Positions 2,153 through 19,696 of a stretch of DNA of 64,000 nucleotides are shown here, piece after piece. The stretch is from a candidate division WWE3 bacterium (GTDB lineage: Bacteria > Patescibacteriota > WWE3 > UBA101185 > UBA10185): the NCBI GenBank assembly GCA_012798115.1, contig JAAZNV010000006.1:91971-155970 (forward strand), given 5' to 3'. The notes under the pieces were generated by a model that worked only from the letters and a program-made list of their open reading frames with translations, did no database searches and was not told the DNA's origin. Every line of letters starts with the position of its first letter. Within the stretch, counting starts at the first letter, position 1. Both the position numbers and the translations under genes were made by a program.

Positions 2153-4717
2153 TTAGTTAAATACCTCAGTACCTAGCAATAAGCTGTCCCCAGCCTTTAC
2201 TTCCTTTTTAAGTATTTTAACTGCTAAATAAGATTCTACTGAGTCTTCTATTGCTCTGGCTAAGGGTCTTGCTCCCCATTGAGGGCTATATCCTCTTTTA
2301 ATGAGTTCTTCAACTAGCTCTGGCTTGAAACTTAATTTAATTCCTTTTTCTTCTGCTCTACTTGTAACTTTTTTTAGCATTAACTTTGTTATCTCTCTCA
2401 TGTTTTCAACTGATAAAGGGTTAAATACTATAATTCCTGTGTATCTGTTTAAAAGTTCTGGAGCAAATTTATTCCTAATGTCAGTCATTGCTGCCTTAGT
2501 CATTTGATCGTATGTACCTTTTGCTTCAAAAACTGTTTGAATAGATCTTGTTCCAACATTGCTTGTACATATAATAATTGAGTTAGTAAAGTTAGCTATA
2601 TTTCCAGATGTGTCTGTTAATCTTCCTTCATCTAACACTTGTAAGAACATTAAAAGAATATTAGGATGTGCTTTTTCTATTTCATCTATCAAAATTAATC
2701 CAAATGGTTTTGACCTTACACTGTCCGTTAACGTTCCATTTATGGAGCCATCTGGTGATCCAATAAGCCTATTTATACTGTCTAATTGTTGATATTCACT
2801 CATATCTAATCTAATCATGTCCTCCTCATTTCCAAAGTAGCTTGATGCTAAAGCCTTTGCTGTTTCTGTTTTTCCTACACCAGTTGTTCCAACAAACAAG
2901 AAGCTTGCTATTGGCTTCTTTTCATCTCTTATTCCAGTTCTTGCTCTTTGAAGAGCAGCTGCAACTTTTTCAAGAGCTTGATCTTGACCAATTACTCTTT
3001 TTTTCATCTCAGATTCAATATTTAAAAGTTTGACTGCATCGTCTTGAGTAATGGTGGTAATTGGAACATTTGTCATTTCGGAAACTTCCTTGGCAACGTC
3101 TTCTGAGGTTAATATTTTTGTAGATTCTTTAACTGATACTGCAGATCTGTTTAGTATATCTATAGCTTTATCAGGAAGAACTCTTTCTTGGATTAATTCT
3201 TCTGATAGCTCTACACTTTCTACAACAGCAGGAAATGTTATAAATGTCTTGTATTCATCTTCATATTTTCTTGCAATGTATTTAAGTATTTCAATAGTAT
3301 CTAACTTTGAGCTTTGATTTAACTCAATAATTTGGAAAAGTCTAGAAATAACTTCGTTTGGTTCAATATATTTTCTGTAATTTGATATTGATGTAGCACC
3401 AATAAATCTAATCTTGTCGCTTACTAGGTAATTTTCAAGCATTGAAAAAATTGTTGAGGAATCCCCATCCTTCTCTCCTAATCCAGTTACTAAATTCTGT
3501 ATCTCATCTATAAATAGTATTATGTCTCCAGATCCTTCTGCATCATCAAGCACACTAGTAAGCCTCTTTGCAATTCCTCCAGCGTTTTCTGCTCCAGAAA
3601 TTAAGGATCCTACATCCAAACTTACAATTCTTTTGTTATGTAGTGTTTTATACTCAGTGCCACATATTATTCTGTAAGCAATACCTTTAAGAATAGAGGT
3701 TTTTCCACTTCCTGGCTCTCCAATAATTAAAATGTTTCCTTTGTTTCCATCAAGCATTTCAGCAATTTGTTTTATTTCTTCTTCTCTTCCTATAATTCTA
3801 TCCACCCTTCCTTTTTGTACTTCTTTTGTGATGTCAAGAGAAACCTTATCTAAAGTAGGGGTTACTCTTCCCAACATTCCTTTTCCTATTCCTCCTAAAG
3901 GACTTCTTTCGTAATTTTCTTGCCATATGTACACTTTTGATAAATACTCTCTTTCCTCAACTATCCATGAAGCTGTTTGTTTTATGGTTTCAACATCAGA
4001 GTTAAAGGAAGACAGTATTGTAGAGATATTAGGAATATTTGTTATTACAGATGTAAATAAATGTTCTAATTCGACATACCTAGATTTATTTTCATTTGCT
4101 AAATCAAAACTTTGTTTCTCAATATTATTAGTTTTCATTTCTGTAATATTACTGAGCTTTTCTATTAACTCTTTATTATCCAGCTCAGACTTTCTTAAAA
4201 GGTAGCTTATACTTTTATCTTTTATAATCTTGTTTATAGCATTCTTGGGATTTTTGATTAAAAGTTTTAAGTAGTACTTTGTTTTAGGTCTAAAGGATTT
4301 TATGTACTTGCTGTCTTTGATATCTTCAATCTTCCTTTCTGGTGTATTTAGATTTGATACTGCCCAAATAAGGTAAAGAACTACAAAGAAAATAAATGTT
4401 GCTTCAAGCGAGTAGTATCCTATGATTAGAGGGATAGCAAGCCAAACTATTGGGATTAGTACACAAATGATTAATATTGCAGTCATGAAGAGAAGGCCTA
4501 CAGCAATCATAAGTATCCTTGCAACAAAGCTCATAACTCTTCCTGGTATCGTACGTATACCATACAAGGGAACAAATAAAAGTCTAATATTGGTTAAAAA
4601 GGATAGCTCATTGTTAGCTACTGCTAGAAACGTTGTAGCTATATTAAAAGCCTTAGCAGGTCCTTTTGTTGCCCACCAAGCTAAGAACTTATGTGGCAGT
4701 TTAAACGAGTAGGGCAT
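2153..4717 (-). CDS. Clp/Hsp100-family double AAA+ ATPase with N-terminal polytopic membrane anchor
   Basis: N-terminal ~130 aa strongly hydrophobic (about 4 TM). AAA1 Walker [15 protein letters not shown]2 Walker [15 protein letters not shown], Walker [12 protein letters not shown]. No ClpB M-domain or IGF loop evident. Confidence 0.75.
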
Positions 4718-4770: not shown

Positions 4771-5229
4771 TTAAAGAAACCTTTTAATAGCTCGTCCGAG
4801 TAAAAATCCTAAAGGAGCATAGAAAGAAATACTTAAGAATTTATAGGAAGATATTGTTCTTGTTATTAGTCCTAGATATGGAATTACTAAAATCACTTTT
4901 CCAATTATTTCAGATTCAATGATGGGATAAGGGTCTTCAAATGTATTATTGTCTCCTTTAGTGATAAAAAGGTTCTTGTTATGAAAAGAATAAATATTAA
5001 TTATTCTGTGAGTTATTAGATTTGGGATTTGAGGTGTTTTGTATACAATTATGTCTCCTGTCTTTAGCCCGCTCATTTTATTTATTTTAATTGCTATGAC
5101 AGCAGATCCTAGCTTTAAACTTGGTTCCATTGAAGATGTAGCTATTTCGTATAGTTTCAGATTTTTAGAACAAGTAATTGCTGTTAGAACTATCATTAAT
5201 ATTTTTAAAGCCTGAAAAGCTATTTTCAT
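4771..5229 (-). CDS. SipW-type (ER/archaeal-type, S26B) signal peptidase I
   Basis: N-terminal TM, catalytic SSMEPSL motif, conserved ITHRII and GDNN segments typical of SipW/Sec11-like peptidases. Confidence 0.7.
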   Translation of the reverse strand: MKIAFQALKILMIVLTAITCSKNLKLYEIATSSMEPSLKLGSAVIAIKINKMSGLKTGDIIVYKTPQIPNLITHRIINIYSFHNKNLFITKGDNNTFEDPYPIIESEIIGKVILVIPYLGLITRTISSYKFLSISFYAPLGFLLGRAIKRFL

Positions 5230-5271
5230 GTTTTTAATTCGCCTTCCCGGGTAAAGCGATATTGTAGATCT

Positions 5272-5859
5272 CTACAATTGAATAGCCTCAAATTCAAAGT
5301 CAAACACTGCTGTAGATCCTTGTTGATCATTTCCTAAGGTTGGAGCAGAAAACCTTAGTATTAAAGGCATTTGCTGTCCTGCTCCTATTTCTCCAAGATC
5401 AAATCCTTCTGTTTTCCATTTTGTTATAGTTTTCTTGCCAAGAGATACCCCTTCCTCGCCAGAATCAACAACTCCATTAGAATTTAAGTCGCTCCATGGT
5501 ATCACTTCCACTTGGATGTCTGATCTGAGATCGTCTGGATCGTTTGCAGTTTCATAGTATGCGTTTGTTACTAATCCTAACTTTGAAGTTCCATTATTTA
5601 ATATCTTTATCAAATAGTCTTGAGTCCACGTTGGAGATATGTTACTAAAGTTAGGGCCTGTGAGTTCATCTGTGAGATTTGATGAGTTTGCTTCAAGAGT
5701 TATATTACTTAGAAACTTAATATCTGCGCTTCCTGCACTAAACGTTGATCCTAGAACCTTTCCTTTGTCTGTAAAAGCTGCATAGGTTACTCCAGCTGCT
5801 AAACTAGATATAAGTATTATTGGTCCAAGGAGATACAGTAAGTTTTTTGTTTTAAGCAT
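5272..5859 (-). CDS. TasA/camelysin-like secreted protein carrying a SipW-cognate-class signal peptide
   Basis: Signal peptide followed by AAFTDKGKVLGSTFSAGS, matching the TasA AAFNDIKS...ATFASG cleavage region; located directly downstream of the SipW-type peptidase. Confidence 0.6.
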   Translation of the reverse strand: MLKTKNLLYLLGPIILISSLAAGVTYAAFTDKGKVLGSTFSAGSADIKFLSNITLEANSSNLTDELTGPNFSNISPTWTQDYLIKILNNGTSKLGLVTNAYYETANDPDDLRSDIQVEVIPWSDLNSNGVVDSGEEGVSLGKKTITKWKTEGFDLGEIGAGQQMPLILRFSAPTLGNDQQGSTAVFDFEFEAIQL

Positions 5860-5882
5860 TTATATCACCACCTTTCTCATAA

Positions 5883-6563
5883 CTAATTACTAAATAATTT
5901 ATGAGCTTTCATACTAAAGAAAGCCTTGTCGGCAACAACTAAATGATCTACAAGTGGAATGCCTATATCCGTTCCTACCTTGGATATCTTTCTTGTTACT
6001 TTAATATCATCTTCGCTTGGGAATGCTTCATTTGATGGGTGGTTGTGAACAATAATTATTGAGTAAGCATTCTTAAGCAAAGCTTTTTTAAACACTTCTC
6101 TTGGGTGTATTAATGTTTCAGTTAATGTTCCTTTTGAAATTACATCTTTTGAAATTAATCTACTTTTTGAGTTCAAAGAGATTAATACAAGATACTCTTG
6201 GTCTTTTCCAATTAAATCTCGTTTTACTAAAGAATAAACATCCCCTGGTTTCTTAATGGCACTTCCAATATTATGATCTTCTTGATCAACTCTTTTAGCT
6301 ATTTCCCCTAGTGCCCTAATACAAGATGCTTTAGCATACCCAATGTTCTTAAAGCTTGTTAACTCTTGAATATCTGCACTTAATAAATTTCTTAATCCTG
6401 AGTATTTATTTAACAAATCTCTAGCAAGGTTTGTAGCAGGGCAGTCTTTTCCACCAGATCTTAAAATTATTGCTAACAACTCTACATTTGTAAGACTGTT
6501 TAAGCCTTTATATATGAGTTTTTCCCTTGGTTTTTCTTCTCTTTGTAAATCTTTAATCTTCAT
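5883..6563 (-). CDS. radC: RadC-like JAMM/MPN domain protein (UPF0758)
   Basis: N-terminal HhH region; C-terminal JAMM motif HNHPSNEAFPSEDD. Confidence 0.8.
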   Translation of the reverse strand: MKIKDLQREEKPREKLIYKGLNSLTNVELLAIILRSGGKDCPATNLARDLLNKYSGLRNLLSADIQELTSFKNIGYAKASCIRALGEIAKRVDQEDHNIGSAIKKPGDVYSLVKRDLIGKDQEYLVLISLNSKSRLISKDVISKGTLTETLIHPREVFKKALLKNAYSIIIVHNHPSNEAFPSEDDIKVTRKISKVGTDIGIPLVDHLVVADKAFFSMKAHKLFSN

Positions 6564-6666
6564 ATCATTTTTATTAAGTAGAATGTAATTTAGTGATCAA
6601 TTTACATCAATATGTATTGTTCTATTTATTTTGGGAAATAGTTGGTGAAAGTTGAGGAATAAGGAT

Positions 6667-6960
6667 ATGGAAAAAAACTTAGGAAAGAAGATAAAAGATA
6701 TTAGAGAAAAGAATAATTTATCTCAAGAAAGATTTGGAAGGAAAATAGGAAAGTCAGGGAAGACTATTTCTGCTTACGAAAAAGGAAGATGTACTCCTTC
6801 GCTTAAAGTTCTTGATTTAATATCCCAAACATATGATGTTTCATTTGTTCATCTCAAGGACAGTAGGGGTACTCAGCTATGGGAAAAGATTCAAGGTGTA
6901 AAAAATGTGCTTGAAGAGATTGAATCAATGATATCGCACAACAAAGATACCTTAAGATAA
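6667..6960 (+). CDS. XRE-family helix-turn-helix transcriptional regulator
   Basis: HTH_3 signature LGKKIKDIREKNNLSQERFGRKIGKSGKTISAYEKG; ATG at 6667 has GAGGAA 7 nt upstream (the ORF track begins at an upstream TTG). Confidence 0.7.
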   Translation: MEKNLGKKIKDIREKNNLSQERFGRKIGKSGKTISAYEKGRCTPSLKVLDLISQTYDVSFVHLKDSRGTQLWEKIQGVKNVLEEIESMISHNKDTLR

Positions 6961-11374: not shown

Positions 11375-11854
11375 TTATACGAAAATATCAGGGTTTGCTT
11401 CTACATACCTAGATAGCCATTTTAATATCTCTGTTGATATATCTTCTTCCTTTATGACTTCATAGAGTACGTCTTGCTGCACAATTCTACTTTCATCTTT
11501 AAGCACAAAAATTGGTCCGTTTATTCCCATGAAAAGGTCTATGGAAATATCTTCCTGGTTTGCATAGTTTTTGCTTCTAATACCAAAACTCTGGCCGTAG
11601 ACTCTGGGGTAGGATACCAAAGTTGAAAATTCAGGAGACACTTCATCTGGAAAGATCACCGTTATTGGATTTATCTCTTGAACCAGAGTCCTTTCGTATT
11701 CTTTAAGTAAGGAGAGAACATCTCTCTGATGAAACCAGACCTCTTTGGTATTAACCTTCATATGCTTTACGATTTCTTTTAGCAGATTACAAGCTGGTGA
11801 GGACCAAGTACTTAAAGAGCTAACAACTGTATCTATCTGCAGCTGTTTATTCAT
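11375..11854 (-). CDS. hypothetical protein (no recognisable domain)
   Basis: 159-aa ORF between the infA promoter region and serS; followed on its own strand by the 11309-11334 hairpin plus T-run. Confidence 0.5.
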   Translation of the reverse strand: MNKQLQIDTVVSSLSTWSSPACNLLKEIVKHMKVNTKEVWFHQRDVLSLLKEYERTLVQEINPITVIFPDEVSPEFSTLVSYPRVYGQSFGIRSKNYANQEDISIDLFMGINGPIFVLKDESRIVQQDVLYEVIKEEDISTEILKWLSRYVEANPDIFV

Positions 11855-12047
11855 CTTCTCTTCGTTTTTCTATATTTCGGATTTTTCTTTTTCTTTTAAT
11901 CCCTTTTGAATCGCTTCTTCAACACGCTCTGATAGGTTCATTTTTTCTCCTTTTATAGTTTATTGATCAGGATCCTACTACAGAGTTGTTGAAGTATCAA
12001 ATCAATATATTGAGAGCTAAATAAAATCAGGATATACTCTAGGAGAC

Positions 12048-13316
12048 GTGTTAGATATTAACTATATAAAAGAAAATAAAGAAAAGGTAAAAAAAGCTAT
12101 CATTGATAAAAGATTAGACGGGACTATTGATATAGACAAACTTCTAAAAGTGTACGAAGAATATCTTTCTTTGTTAAAGAAAGTTGAAATAGAAAGAAGC
12201 AATAGAAATAAAATATCTGAAGAAGTTGCTAAAGCTAAACCTTCTGAGAAGGAAAAATTTATTCAAGAAGCAAAGGTAATAAAAGATGTACTTCAAAGGA
12301 TGGAAAAAGAGTTAGAAGAATTGAAGTCTAGATTGGACAATATGTTGCTTTGGGTTCCTAATGTTCCTGCTGATGATGTACCTGTTGGGAAGGATGAAAC
12401 AGGAAATGTTGAAATTAAGAAGGTTGGGAAGATAAAAGACTTTAAATTTGAACCTAAAGATCATGTAGAATTGGGGAAATTACTAGATATTATTGATATC
12501 GATAGGGGAGCAAAGATTGCAGGGTTTAGAGGGTATTTTTTAAAAAACGAAGGGGCTATTCTTGAACAAGCAATATTAAGATATGCATTTGAATATATGA
12601 TCAAGCAAGGTTTTACCTTCATGAGTGTTCCTTGGATGGTAAATCCTGGTTTTTTTACCGGAACAGGGTATTTCCCTTGGGGGGAAAATGATCATTATAG
12701 AGTGGATGATAAAGCATTAATTGGAACTGCAGAAGTATCTTTAACTTCATATTATGCAGGTGAGACGTTAGAAGAAAAAGACCTTCCAGTAAAACTTGTT
12801 GCATTAAGCCCTTGCTTTAGGAAAGAGATTGGAGCTTATGGGAAAGATACTAAAGGAATATTTAGACTTCATCAGTTTTATAAAGTGGAACAAGTTGTTC
12901 TTTGTGAAGCAAGTGAAGACACATCAAGAAAGTGGCATGAACAAATGCTTGGTTTTTCAGAATCAATTCTTGAAGGTTTAAGTCTCCCATATCGTGTACT
13001 TCTTATGTGTACTGGGGATATCGGAGCAGGGCAAAGGAAAAAATATGATATTGAGACTTGGTTTCCTTCTCAAAAAATATACAGAGAAACTCACTCTGAC
13101 TCATACTTTTTAGATTTTCAATCAAGAAGACTAAATATTAAATACAAAGCAAAGGATGGAAGTTTAAAATATGTTCATACGTTAAACAATACAGTAGCTG
13201 CTACTCCAAGGCTTCTTGCGGCAGTTATGGAAAACTATCAAAAGAAAGATGGATCTATTGAAATTCCTAAAGTATTAAGAAAGTATACAGGTTTTAAGAA
13301 GATAGTACCTAAATAG
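12048..13316 (+). CDS. serS: seryl-tRNA synthetase
   Basis: N-terminal coiled-coil MLDINYIKENKEKV; class II core (motif 2/3 region FRKEIGAYGKDTKGIFRLHQF); GTG start preceded by AGGAG. Confidence 0.9.
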   Translation: MLDINYIKENKEKVKKAIIDKRLDGTIDIDKLLKVYEEYLSLLKKVEIERSNRNKISEEVAKAKPSEKEKFIQEAKVIKDVLQRMEKELEELKSRLDNMLLWVPNVPADDVPVGKDETGNVEIKKVGKIKDFKFEPKDHVELGKLLDIIDIDRGAKIAGFRGYFLKNEGAILEQAILRYAFEYMIKQGFTFMSVPWMVNPGFFTGTGYFPWGENDHYRVDDKALIGTAEVSLTSYYAGETLEEKDLPVKLVALSPCFRKEIGAYGKDTKGIFRLHQFYKVEQVVLCEASEDTSRKWHEQMLGFSESILEGLSLPYRVLLMCTGDIGAGQRKKYDIETWFPSQKIYRETHSDSYFLDFQSRRLNIKYKAKDGSLKYVHTLNNTVAATPRLLAAVMENYQKKDGSIEIPKVLRKYTGFKKIVPK

Positions 13317-17475: not shown

Positions 17476-19092
17476 TTACTTGTTAAGTATTTTGTTCAAA
17501 TAAGTTTGACACAACTGATTGGTTGGATCTGCATCTAAGCATTTTTGGAAATATTCTGTGGCTTTATCATAGTTTTCTTCAAAGTAGTAAATCTCTCCTA
17601 GTTTAAAAGATGATTGATATAGTCTTGGATTCATATCTGTTGCTTGTGCTAAGTATTTTTTAGCTTTCTCAATATTGCCTATTTGACTGTATATATAGCC
17701 GATATTATGTACTGCATCTGCATAATCCGGCTTTAATGCTACTGATCTTTTAAAATTTTCCAGTGCCAGTTCGTAGTTTTTCTCTTCTGCATATACATCT
17801 CCAAGATTATTATAGACTCTATAGCTATATGGGGCTGTTTTTCTTGTTGCAAACCAAAGGTTCTTGCTATTTTTAAGATCGTTGTTTCTAATAACAGTTC
17901 TTATAGAAAAGAATGTTAACAATACAATTGTAAAAATAATAGAAAGGTTTTTTGTCTTATATTTATCTTCTGCTTTTAGTATTAATATACCTACCATTGC
18001 AGAGTAGAAAGCTGAAGCTATGTACAAATATCTTTCTGCTGCTGTCCATGCAATTATTATTGGGCTAAAACTAGGGAGTATGGAAAATATAATGATCATC
18101 ATTAGACCTGCAACGACTCTATCTTTTTTCCATAAGTATATTGTTAAAGAAATGATTGCTATGGTTATTATGACCATAAAAGCATATTCTACATTTCCTA
18201 AAACTTTTCCTTCATGATATATACTAAGCTCCATGGGGAAGGCTAGTAACTTGTATTCCATATAAATTGTATATGGAATTCTGTTTATGAGAGGAGTAGA
18301 AGTTTCTTCTTTAACATAATAAAGAGTTTGAAGTTCCTGAACTCTTTGCTTAAAAAACCCTGGAATAAGAATAGCAGCAAATATTAAGGATATTATTGCA
18401 TATGGAACGTACATTTTAATGTTTTTCCATGTTATTTTCTCTTCAAGCACAAATTGATCTAAGAGTATTAATATCACTGGTGTTACAAATAACCAACCAG
18501 AACTCCTGAAGAAGAGCATACCAACAAGGAATATCAACGATGAGTATAAAAGACAATACTTATTTTTTGACTTTTTGTATATTGCATAAAAAAGGAGCGT
18601 ACCAAAGATAAATATTCCTCTAATTAGATAAGGATAACCTGATATCCAACCTACAGCTTCAGTGTTAACAGGATGAGTGATAAATAAGGCTGTAGCTATT
18701 AAGGACACTTTCCTTCCAAATAAAACGTACATGAGCAAAAAGACTAAGATACTGTTTATGCAATGCATAATGATTGCAGCTACATGATAAGCAGTTGGGT
18801 TTAATCCGAAGATCTTAAAAATAACTACCTTGTATAAGTTGTATCCTTCCATACTTTTAATTGCTGCAGATATGTTTCCTATGTTTGGATCGTTAACTAT
18901 TCCACTTATATCATCAAGGTTTAAAAACTTTCCATTTATTAAATTTGCATATATGAGGAAGCAGGACAATATAATTGCTATTAAAAGGATTATATTTGCT
19001 TTTAAAAATCTAATAAGATCTTTCATTCCACCTATTTCAGTACCTAGATTTTCTATGGTAATTTGTTTCTTTTGTTTGTTATTATTTTTCAT
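17476..19092 (-). CDS. polytopic membrane protein with C-terminal TPR repeats (PMT/TMTC-like GT-C architecture)
   Basis: About 10 TM in the N-terminal 400 aa; the C-terminal ~130 aa contain 3-4 TPR repeats (YNNLGDVYAEEKNYELALENFKRSVALKPDYADAVHNIGYIY). Confidence 0.6.
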   Translation of the reverse strand: MKNNNKQKKQITIENLGTEIGGMKDLIRFLKANIILLIAIILSCFLIYANLINGKFLNLDDISGIVNDPNIGNISAAIKSMEGYNLYKVVIFKIFGLNPTAYHVAAIIMHCINSILVFLLMYVLFGRKVSLIATALFITHPVNTEAVGWISGYPYLIRGIFIFGTLLFYAIYKKSKNKYCLLYSSLIFLVGMLFFRSSGWLFVTPVILILLDQFVLEEKITWKNIKMYVPYAIISLIFAAILIPGFFKQRVQELQTLYYVKEETSTPLINRIPYTIYMEYKLLAFPMELSIYHEGKVLGNVEYAFMVIITIAIISLTIYLWKKDRVVAGLMMIIIFSILPSFSPIIIAWTAAERYLYIASAFYSAMVGILILKAEDKYKTKNLSIIFTIVLLTFFSIRTVIRNNDLKNSKNLWFATRKTAPYSYRVYNNLGDVYAEEKNYELALENFKRSVALKPDYADAVHNIGYIYSQIGNIEKAKKYLAQATDMNPRLYQSSFKLGEIYYFEENYDKATEYFQKCLDADPTNQLCQTYLNKILNK

Positions 19093-19150: not shown

Positions 19151-19696
19151 ATGAAAGTAAAAGAGTTAATTGTTGAGATTATTGAGTCTCTTGTAGTATC
19201 TTTTATAGTAATAATGCTTATTTACATGCTTGTTGCTTCTGTTGAAGTTGTTGTTGGCCCAAGTATGGAGCCTAACTTTTACTCTGGGGAAAGAATCTTA
19301 GTTGATAGAATAACAAAGAAGCTGTTTCCCTTAAAAAGGGGAGAAATAGTTGTCTTTTTTCCACCAAATGATAATGAAAGTCACTATATTAAAAGAATAG
19401 TAGGTATGCCTGGGGATATATTTAAGATAATAGATTGTGGCGTTGTTATATCTAAAGACGGTGAAAGGTTTAAGTTAGATGAATCTTACTTGGGCGAAGG
19501 TACTTGTACTGAAGGTAATATAAAGATAAGAGAAGGGCATTCTATTAGAATAGAAGATAACCAATATGCTCTTTTAGGAGACAACCGCGAGGAATCTCTT
19601 GATTCAAGGATCTTAGGTTTTGTTGATAAGAAAAGGATCATAGGAAGGGTAGTATTTAGGTTTTGGCCGTTGAATAAGGTAGGTTTTGTGAATTAG
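19151..19696 (+). CDS. lepB: bacterial-type (S26A) signal peptidase I
   Basis: Catalytic GPSMEPNF box, KRIVGMPGD, GDNREESLDSR. Confidence 0.85.
   Translation: MKVKELIVEIIESLVVSFIVIMLIYMLVASVEVVVGPSMEPNFYSGERILVDRITKKLFPLKRGEIVVFFPPNDNESHYIKRIVGMPGDIFKIIDCGVVISKDGERFKLDESYLGEGTCTEGNIKIREGHSIRIEDNQYALLGDNREESLDSRILGFVDKKRIIGRVVFRFWPLNKVGFVN

Follow-up and report, generated by a model that had tools for sequence, protein, structure and literature searches.

A putative substrate gene and a signal peptidase gene side by side

The DNA analyzed here, a 64-kb stretch referred to below as the window, comes from a candidate division WWE3 bacterium, a member of the Patescibacteria or Candidate Phyla Radiation (CPR). 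It is AT-rich (about 33% GC) and carries on its minus strand two co-directional genes, one for a 195-aa secreted precursor (5272-5859) and the other, 42 nt downstream, for a 152-aa signal peptidase I (4771-5229). Few Patescibacteria/CPR cells have been cultured, and little is known of their surface structures other than type IV pili. Fibers of the TasA type, in which subunits are joined by donor strands, have recently been recognized as a way of building biofilm matrices that is shared across domains. The two genes make up a module of the known SipW/TasA type, which combines an S26B peptidase with a precursor of the TasA superfamily. An earlier note, made from the sequence alone, had correctly placed both open reading frames (ORFs) at these positions and had read them as such a pair, an interpretation that our results support overall, with the reservation that the direct scores of this sequence against hidden Markov models (HMMs) are marginal. 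Chance ORFs were considered and ruled out by hundreds of homologs, 216 for the substrate and 197 for the peptidase. Wherever homologs of the two proteins are named, the record is one of candidate division WWE3 or of the "Patescibacteria group", and the complete genome CP006914.1 is among them.

The peptidase is of the S26B (SipW/Sec11) type and not of the LepB type, as had been proposed from its SSMEP, HR, and GDNN motifs, all of which are present. It passes TIGR02228 (sigpep_I_arch, the archaeal/ER-type signal peptidase I; 92.8 bits, cut-off 51.85) and Pfam PF10502 (29.8 versus 22.9 bits), while staying below the LepB model TIGR02227 (35.5 bits, cut-off 47). Some of its 197 relatives are named SipW. 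Because it scores 68.2 bits on NF046067, the equivalog model of Bacillus SipW, for which the cut-off is 190, the enzyme is a relative of SipW and, by the NCBI criterion, not its ortholog. Among proteins of solved structure, it is most closely related to human SEC11C (E 1.7e-9) and SEC11A (E 3.2e-9), which align with it across SMEP, HR, and KGDNN...D. The motifs themselves lie at residues 30-36 (TSSMEPS), 73-75 (THR), and 91-95 (KGDNN). Alignment of 21 peptidases from WWE3 with five S26B enzymes as outgroup (one from Microbacterium and four from Bacillales, of which three are named SipW) shows S33, M34, T73, H74, R75, K91, G92, D93, N95, and D99 to be invariant. This invariance, which extends to the named SipW proteins, and the alignment to SEC11A/C point to Ser33 (5131-5133), His74 (5008-5010), Asp93 (4951-4953), and Asp99 (4933-4935), all on the minus strand, as the predicted catalytic residues. 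The enzyme is accordingly predicted to have the Ser/His(/Asp) arrangement of S26B peptidases instead of the Ser/Lys dyad of LepB. A hydrophobic N-terminal segment (residues 3-21, Kyte-Doolittle 1.93) together with a hydrophobic C-terminal tail would serve as its membrane anchor.

The start codon of the peptidase gene is ambiguous. One homologous record (P0121, 141 aa) begins 11 codons later, at Met12, and a start at that position would truncate the only clear membrane segment of the protein. The GGAAGG that precedes Met1 ends 13 nt from the ATG, an unusually long spacing.

Family, fold, and N-terminus of the precursor

The precursor, whose sequence reads MLKTKNLLYLLGPIILISSLAAGVTYAAFTDKGKVLGSTFSAGS..., belongs to a family of proteins that are almost all 192-205 aa long and 45-99% identical to it (best E 1e-121), and the named members of this family stem from WWE3/Patescibacteria records only. 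An alignment of 69 family members (A1) was used as a profile in an exhaustive search of 1.84 billion representatives, which yielded 187 proteins at E<=1e-3. The earlier note had assigned the precursor to the SipW-cognate, TasA-like class, and the matches across the family point the same way. TIGR04088, the model of the SipW-dependent-type signal peptide, matches 49 of the 69 members at E<=0.1 (best 1.3e-5), and PF12389 (Peptidase_M73/TasA) weakly matches 34 of them at the same threshold (best E 0.0018). A relative with 61% identity (P0024) carries the NCBI name "SipW-dependent-type signal peptide-containing protein". The A1 profile also reaches distant proteins that pass the cut-off of PF12389, three of them over the full profile (P0303, 42.3 bits; P0305, 25.7 bits; P0328, 24.0 bits) and one over most of it (P0307, 34.2 bits). 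TIGR04088 is passed by P0303, P0307, and P0328, and more distant profile matches score 20-35 bits. As a separate observation, DUF4179 weakly matched seven of the WWE3 candidate fiber proteins.

Remote homology to TasA itself was found by comparing profile A1 with the Bacillus subtilis protein in hhalign, for which we used a TasA sequence identical to chain 8AUR_A over residues 28-261. The alignment (E 2.6e-5, 114 columns) runs to residue 128, so that the homology continues for 100 residues beyond the signal peptide. Within it, ILNNGTS is paired with FENNGSL and DPDDLRSDIQVEV with SPEDFLSQFEVTL.

The predicted structure leads to the same family. AlphaFold2, supplied with A1, gave a model with a mean predicted local distance difference test score (pLDDT) of 84.3 and a predicted template modeling score (pTM) of 0.70, in which a signal-peptide helix (residues 5-28) is followed by an unstructured stretch of low confidence (about 29-45) and then by a β-rich domain with a pLDDT of about 90 from around residue 50. 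When this model was compared with the PDB by Foldseek, the top match was the TasA fiber (8aur_A; E 2.4e-5, probability 1.00), the outcome expected for the TasA-like jelly-roll that the earlier note had suggested modeling for. It was followed by further filaments of the donor-strand kind, the Pyrobaculum bundling pilus (7ueg), the Sulfolobus 0406 thread (7pnb), the CS20 pilus (8eht), PapA (2uy6), and Pyrodictium cannulae (9h8b); each of these six is a fiber or pilus subunit. The model thus supports a TasA-like jelly-roll or β-sandwich as the predicted fold. Taken with the sequence comparisons, this supports the placement of the protein in the TasA superfamily, as a divergent, lineage-specific subfamily that escapes curated cut-offs.

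Codons 1-27 (5779-5859, minus strand) encode a signal peptide with the n-region MLKTK, a hydrophobic h-region (residues 7-25 by hydropathy), and the c-region T-Y-A. Cleavage is expected between A27 and A28, after T25-Y26-A27, because the aligned mature chain of TasA starts at A28 (AFNDIKSK, 8AUR). The signal peptide of TasA is likewise 27 residues long and aligns with codons 1-27 of the WWE3 precursor. With a slash marking the site, hhalign sets GVTYA/AFTDKGKVLGSTF of the WWE3 protein against GGTWA/AFND-IKSKDATF of TasA, and AFTDKGKVLGSTF... would be the mature N-terminus. The motif AAFTDKGKVLGSTFSAGS, with which the signal peptide had been said to end, is real. However, it straddles the likely site (TYA/AFTD) and falls mostly in the predicted donor strand of the mature protein, the signal peptide itself probably ending in TYA. 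A pattern of the form G-x-T-[YW]-A/x-[FW]-x-[DE] is common to the WWE3 precursor and to AbpX, whose junction reads GLTYA/QWSE.

The segment behind this site, codons 28-45 (AFTDKGKVLGSTFSAGSA; 5725-5778, minus strand), is predicted from its conservation and from the TasA alignment to be an N-terminal donor strand. All 69 family members have F29, D31, and F40, and nearly all have A27, A28, L36, G37, and G43. The segment aligns with residues 28-44 of TasA, with F29, D31, and F40 at TasA positions 29, 31, and 39. In the TasA fiber, residues 28-38 form the donor strand, F29, I32, and F39 make hydrophobic contacts, and deletion of residues 28-38 cripples fiber formation (PMC9674648). F29 and F40 are therefore the counterparts of two named donor-strand contacts, F29 and F39 of TasA. 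The same segment is unstructured in the AlphaFold2 monomer model, with the lowest pLDDT of the whole chain, and the N-terminus of AbpX is also disordered in monomer predictions (bioRxiv 10.64898/2026.01.04.697558). In AbpX-like donor strands, position +2 is aromatic and position +4 acidic, and the residue at +4 coordinates Ca2+ at the interface between strand and groove (bioRxiv 10.64898/2026.01.04.697558), a rule that the WWE3 protein fits through F29 and D31. By homology, the precursor would thus possess an N-terminal donor strand with conserved aromatic contacts that takes part in strand exchange.

A second conserved element lies further along the chain. Codons 124-135 (5455-5490, minus strand), just after the invariant W122, encode the 12-residue loop D-L-N-S-N-G-V-V-D-S-G-E, which fits the canonical EF-hand with D or N at positions 1, 3, and 5, G at 6, a hydrophobic residue at 8, D at 9, and E at 12. 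Across the family, the loop positions are conserved in 58-68 of the 69 members, including D124 (68), N/D126 (68), N/D128 (67), G129 (68), D/E132 (63), and E135 (68). This conservation suggests that the loop may bind Ca2+. The presence of an EF-hand-like loop also explains the weak Pfam matches of the protein and its family to SdrD_B and EF-hand domains, the insignificant match to SdrD in the PDB, and the matches to segments of giant proteins. In these last, which are between 1 and 5 thousand residues long, the pattern W-x-D-x-N-x-N-G-x-x-D-x-x-E (codons 122-135 of the WWE3 gene, 5455-5496, minus strand) is repeated 5-22 times. The giant loop-bearing proteins (P0266, P0293, P0297, P0309, and others) match only profile positions of about 112-143, and are presumably adhesins. 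The loop is of the same Ca2+ kind as that in the B domains of SdrD.

Proposed assembly and the possible role of the adjacent peptidase

We consider it probable, at roughly 70%, that the two genes form a TasA-type module for secretion and assembly in this WWE3 bacterium. The precursor would be exported by Sec, and its 27-residue signal peptide would be cut after T-Y-A by the adjacent membrane-bound S26B Ser/His peptidase, or by LepB where the S26B gene is missing. This would expose the N-terminus A-F-T-D-K-G-K-V-L-G-S-T-F, and the freed segment could then enter, as a donor β-strand, the open groove in the jelly-roll or β-sandwich of the next subunit. In this way, the acidic 168-aa subunits would polymerize outside the cell into a non-covalent fiber, as do TasA, archaeal bundling pili, and AbpX. 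The EF-hand-like loop D124-E135, and possibly also D31, may bind Ca2+ and so stabilize the subunit or the fiber only outside the cell. A more novel reading, which we think rather improbable, would make this the principal extracellular fiber of the WWE3 lineage, namely a minimal, TapA-independent, Ca2+-triggered donor-strand polymer by which these ultra-small and probably episymbiotic cells would adhere to hosts or form a matrix. The dedicated S26B peptidase would then have been lost repeatedly, since LepB could expose the donor strand. The family occurs in 63 WWE3/Patescibacteria genomes, always at the same position of the core genome, beside the ribosomal-protein/rpoA block. The locus thereby provides a concrete, small (168 aa), and highly conserved candidate fiber subunit for one whole CPR lineage. 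The mechanism of such systems as it is known stays unchanged, and annotation pipelines already name close relatives correctly.

A number of results weigh against this reading. The two models that the earlier note had suggested as a check narrowly miss the precursor itself, which scores 18.3 bits on TIGR04088 (cut-off 19) and 13.4 bits on PF12389 (cut-off 22.5), the latter over residues 18-61 only. Taken strictly, this single sequence falls narrowly short of the HMM support whose absence the earlier note had named as counting against its reading. The hhalign probability for A1 and TasA is 74.7%, and so below 90%. TasA was not retrieved when the family alignment was used in a sequence-profile search of the PDB, which returned SdrD only, at an insignificant E of 0.077. 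The similarity of fold is moderate, with a query-normalized TM-score (TMq) to TasA of just 0.52, and a motif search of the 64-kb window found no TapA-like nucleator.

The last two of these points would also fit a protein that is secreted and processed but stays monomeric, as a Ca2+-binding surface or adhesin domain or as a cell-envelope protein, which we regard as improbable, though it is the alternative that survives best. TasA, too, can exist as a stable monomer (PMC9674648), and the EF-hand-like loop is of a kind that is repeated in giant adhesin-like proteins and in the B domains of SdrD. On the other hand, the six best structural matches are all fiber or pilus subunits. In addition, the N-terminal stretch of 18 residues in the mature protein ranks with the most conserved parts of the family and yet lies outside the folded core of the model. 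A donor strand predicts this pattern, which would be difficult to account for in a monomer.

The remaining evidence against our reading concerns the peptidase. It was gathered from 64 loci in 63 species-representative genomes, in which one locus of the family was found per genome. The order rpsI-HTH-radC-substrate-...-clp-prfB is conserved in these related loci, which places the substrate gene in a core syntenic block. Directly downstream of the substrate, 27 of the 64 loci have the S26B gene (L004-L017 and others). In the other 37, labeled within L018-L063, the peptidase is missing from the conserved position, neither an HMM match nor a tblastn remnant was found in the loci, and the ClpB-like gene or prfB directly follows the substrate. 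In L042, the weakness of the peptidase match is an artefact of a masked run of N, and a pseudogene was ruled out there. Because of this absence from the conserved position, the peptidase must be either dispensable in the genomes of those 37 loci or encoded elsewhere in them. The description of the pair as dedicated, given in the earlier note, is thereby weakened. Since the substrate is retained across related genomes whether or not the peptidase gene accompanies it, the locus amounts to a natural experiment on the need for a SipW-type peptidase.

The adjacent S26B enzyme might not be the one that processes the precursor. In that case, LepB would make the cut and the adjacency would be a historical remnant, or S26B would serve other substrates; we think this unlikely, slightly more so than a monomeric product. 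The window does encode a conventional LepB (S26A), the housekeeping signal peptidase I, outside the pair at 19151-19696 on the plus strand (TIGR02227, 129.8 bits, cut-off 47), as had been noted before. The site T-Y-A/A also fits the -3/-1 rule of LepB, and archaeal AbpA is thought to use a generic peptidase (PMC9245690). A rough neighbor-joining tree of the substrates, in which the clade of the window mostly has the peptidase and the other large clade has it sporadically, requires at least seven changes in adjacency. Such scattered presence at an identical position suggests that the gene was present ancestrally and was repeatedly lost or relocated. Against processing by LepB alone, the peptidase, where present, always lies directly downstream of the substrate, both in the 27 loci and for each WWE3-type S26B peptidase that was looked up.

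The cleavage region points in the same direction. Every one of the 26 precursors that could be read next to a peptidase gene carries A-F-[TS]-D. Among the 33 that lack such a neighbor, only 11 carry it, and five have lost the Asp (AAFSGK, AAFTYK twice, AVFLGN, and AAISNK). This hints that A-F-x-D has loosened under relaxed constraint where the peptidase is absent, although phylogeny confounds the comparison. Of the two proteins, the peptidase is the faster-evolving one, being 58-59% identical to its counterpart in the closest genome, compared with 85% for the substrate. Within the 64-kb window, the 195-aa gene is the only ORF in which [AGS]-x-[FY]-[TS]-D stands behind a signal-like segment, and no second precursor of the TIGR04088 kind, such as a TapA analog, was found there.

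The pairing of S26B with a TasA-like protein recurs in other lineages, which again speaks for S26B as the processing enzyme. Beyond the WWE3 synteny, the nearest peptidase relative examined (P0130), which is 39% identical over 84% of the query, adjoins two PF12389 genes, and published work notes a frequent co-location of genes of the TasA superfamily with a signal peptidase I. Among the loci of peptidase relatives that lie outside WWE3, two PF12389 genes follow the peptidase in L074 (663-2662). In L069-L071 (1989-4501), the peptidase relative is preceded by two genes without annotation (358 and 265 aa), and in L069 a 400-aa DUF4179 protein is encoded about 1.2 kb downstream of it.

Two further readings arise from the names given to matching proteins. 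PF12389 bears the description "Camelysin metallo-endopeptidase", and its weak N-terminal match could be taken to mean that the precursor is a metalloprotease of the camelysin type (Peptidase_M73). The mature protein (168 aa, pI 4.2, 13.7% Asp+Glu), however, contains no His and no Cys, the family median being zero for both, and would have no conventional Zn site. As a result, the comparison with camelysins drawn in the earlier note does not hold in the protease sense. With the PF12389 match confined to residues 18-61, which cover the signal peptide and the N-terminus, we find a camelysin-type metalloprotease not credible. A precursor of a ribosomally synthesized and modified peptide, as implied by the name that JGI gives to several relatives ([quoted passage not shown]), is less plausible still, given that conservation extends over all 168 aa of the mature region, which is modeled as a confident β-sandwich (pLDDT about 90 from residue 50), and that the neighboring genes (radC, a ClpB-like gene, and prfB) include no modification enzymes.

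Comparison with known systems and the surroundings of the pair

The closest counterpart of the locus is the tapA-sipW-tasA operon of B. subtilis, in which an S26B Ser/His peptidase gene likewise adjoins the gene of its presumed substrate. The two systems share a 27-residue signal peptide, a nearly identical junction (GGTWA/AFND in TasA, GVTYA/AFTD in WWE3), a jelly-roll or β-sandwich with homology up to residue 128, and conserved donor-strand aromatics. Four differences stand out. The WWE3 protein has an EF-hand-like loop to which nothing in TasA is equivalent in the hhalign alignment, and the window yielded no TapA-like gene. Unlike the Bacillus biofilm operon, moreover, the WWE3 genes sit in a core block, rpsI-HTH-radC-X-clp-prfB, and their peptidase is patchy, being missing in over half of the related loci. 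The gene order is substrate before peptidase, the subunit is shorter than TasA (168 versus 234 mature residues) and lacks its C-terminal extension, and the peptidase, at 152 aa, reaches only about a third of the cut-off score of the Bacillus SipW equivalog (68 of 190 bits).

AbpX of Pyrodictium abyssi offers a second parallel, as it is also encoded in a two-gene locus with a TIGR02228-type peptidase directly downstream (bioRxiv 10.64898/2026.01.04.697558). AbpX is similarly acidic (pI of about 4.0 and 14.6% D+E, compared with 4.2 and 13.7%), and the two proteins have in common the form of the junction, in which position +2 is aromatic and +4 acidic, an N-terminus that is disordered in monomer models, and a likely role of Ca2+. 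The relationship is nevertheless weaker than that to TasA, with an hhalign probability of 53% (E 1.3e-4) over the first 55 columns. The Ca2+ ligands of AbpX (D18, D46, D48, and E52) are situated at the interface between donor strand and groove, whereas the EF-hand-like loop of the WWE3 protein occupies mature positions 97-108. The peptidases associated with AbpX are described as having ten transmembrane helices, compared with one clear N-terminal transmembrane segment and a hydrophobic tail in the 152-aa WWE3 enzyme. With respect to the AbpX-like Ca2+-responsive clade, the WWE3 pair thus shares the acidic subunit, the +2/+4 residues, and the adjacent TIGR02228 peptidase, but neither clusters with AbpX in sequence nor has a dedicated peptidase with ten transmembrane helices.

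Other archaeal filaments, namely the bundling pili made of AbpA (Pyrobaculum), the Sulfolobus 0406 threads, and the Pyrodictium cannulae, are of the same fold class and ranked second, third, and sixth in Foldseek. They are much more distant from the WWE3 protein (TMq 0.33-0.35), and AbpA has no dedicated peptidase. On the side of the peptidase, the eukaryotic Sec11 and archaeal signal peptidase I enzymes (MEROPS S26B) resemble the WWE3 enzyme in that their Ser/His/Asp motifs align with it, that it passes TIGR02228, and that they include its closest solved relatives. The WWE3 enzyme differs from them in appearing to be a stand-alone bacterial protein, as no accessory genes of the signal peptidase complex (SPC) type are present among its neighbors (radC, the ClpB-like gene, and prfB). 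Homologs of PF12389 in Patescibacteria have been mentioned before, in a remark based on AnnoTree (PMC9245690). This was the sole link found in a literature search, in which no relevant paper on TasA in WWE3, Katanobacteria, or CPR, and none treating WWE3 specifically, turned up.

The pair is embedded in a run of genes on the minus strand. Family HMMs identified prfB (1108-2109) and a ClpB-like AAA+ gene of 854 aa (2153-4717) downstream of the peptidase, and radC (5883-6563; NF000642, 224.7 bits) lies upstream of the substrate. The intervals measure 23 nt between radC and the 195-aa ORF, 42 nt between the 195-aa and 152-aa ORFs, and 53 nt between the 152-aa ORF and the ClpB-like gene. No terminator-like hairpin was found between neighboring genes from radC to the ClpB-like gene, and a promoter scan gave no more sites than were found in shuffled sequence. 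The missing terminator is compatible with co-transcription of substrate and peptidase, and is otherwise uninformative on transcription units. A Shine-Dalgarno-like sequence, GAAAGGTGGTGA (5866-5877, minus strand), can be read 6 nt before the ATG of the substrate gene.

The radC gene is directly upstream of the candidate fiber gene, and in some relatives it overlaps the start of that gene by 4 nt (in L001, 5315-6004 and 6001-6588). Such an overlap suggests that genes unrelated in function are translationally coupled or co-transcribed. A gene for an Xre-type helix-turn-helix (HTH) protein in divergent orientation (6652-6960, plus strand) precedes radC, as it does in most related loci. Beyond it, on the minus strand, family HMMs placed rpsI and, at 7-10 kb, a block of ribosomal-protein genes and rpoA.

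The ClpB-like gene adjoins the substrate or the peptidase in most related WWE3 loci. Its product is a ClpB/ClpA-like double-AAA+ protein in which a hydrophobic N-terminal region, with two to three predicted membrane segments at about residues 60-121, replaces the usual Clp N-domain. It remains far below the cut-off of the ClpB equivalog (552.7 versus 1232.1 bits).

Further into the window, at about 11850-12050, the orientation of the genes turns from minus to plus, between a 159-aa ORF (11375-11854, minus strand) and a 422-aa ORF (12048-13316, plus strand). The sign of the GC skew flips at the same place, and the cumulative skew is lowest at 10-12 kb. This switch could mark an origin of replication, or just a promoter region between divergent genes. 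Back-to-back with LepB, a 538-aa protein (17476-19092, minus strand) combines a long, visibly hydrophobic N-terminal part with C-terminal tetratricopeptide (TPR) repeats.

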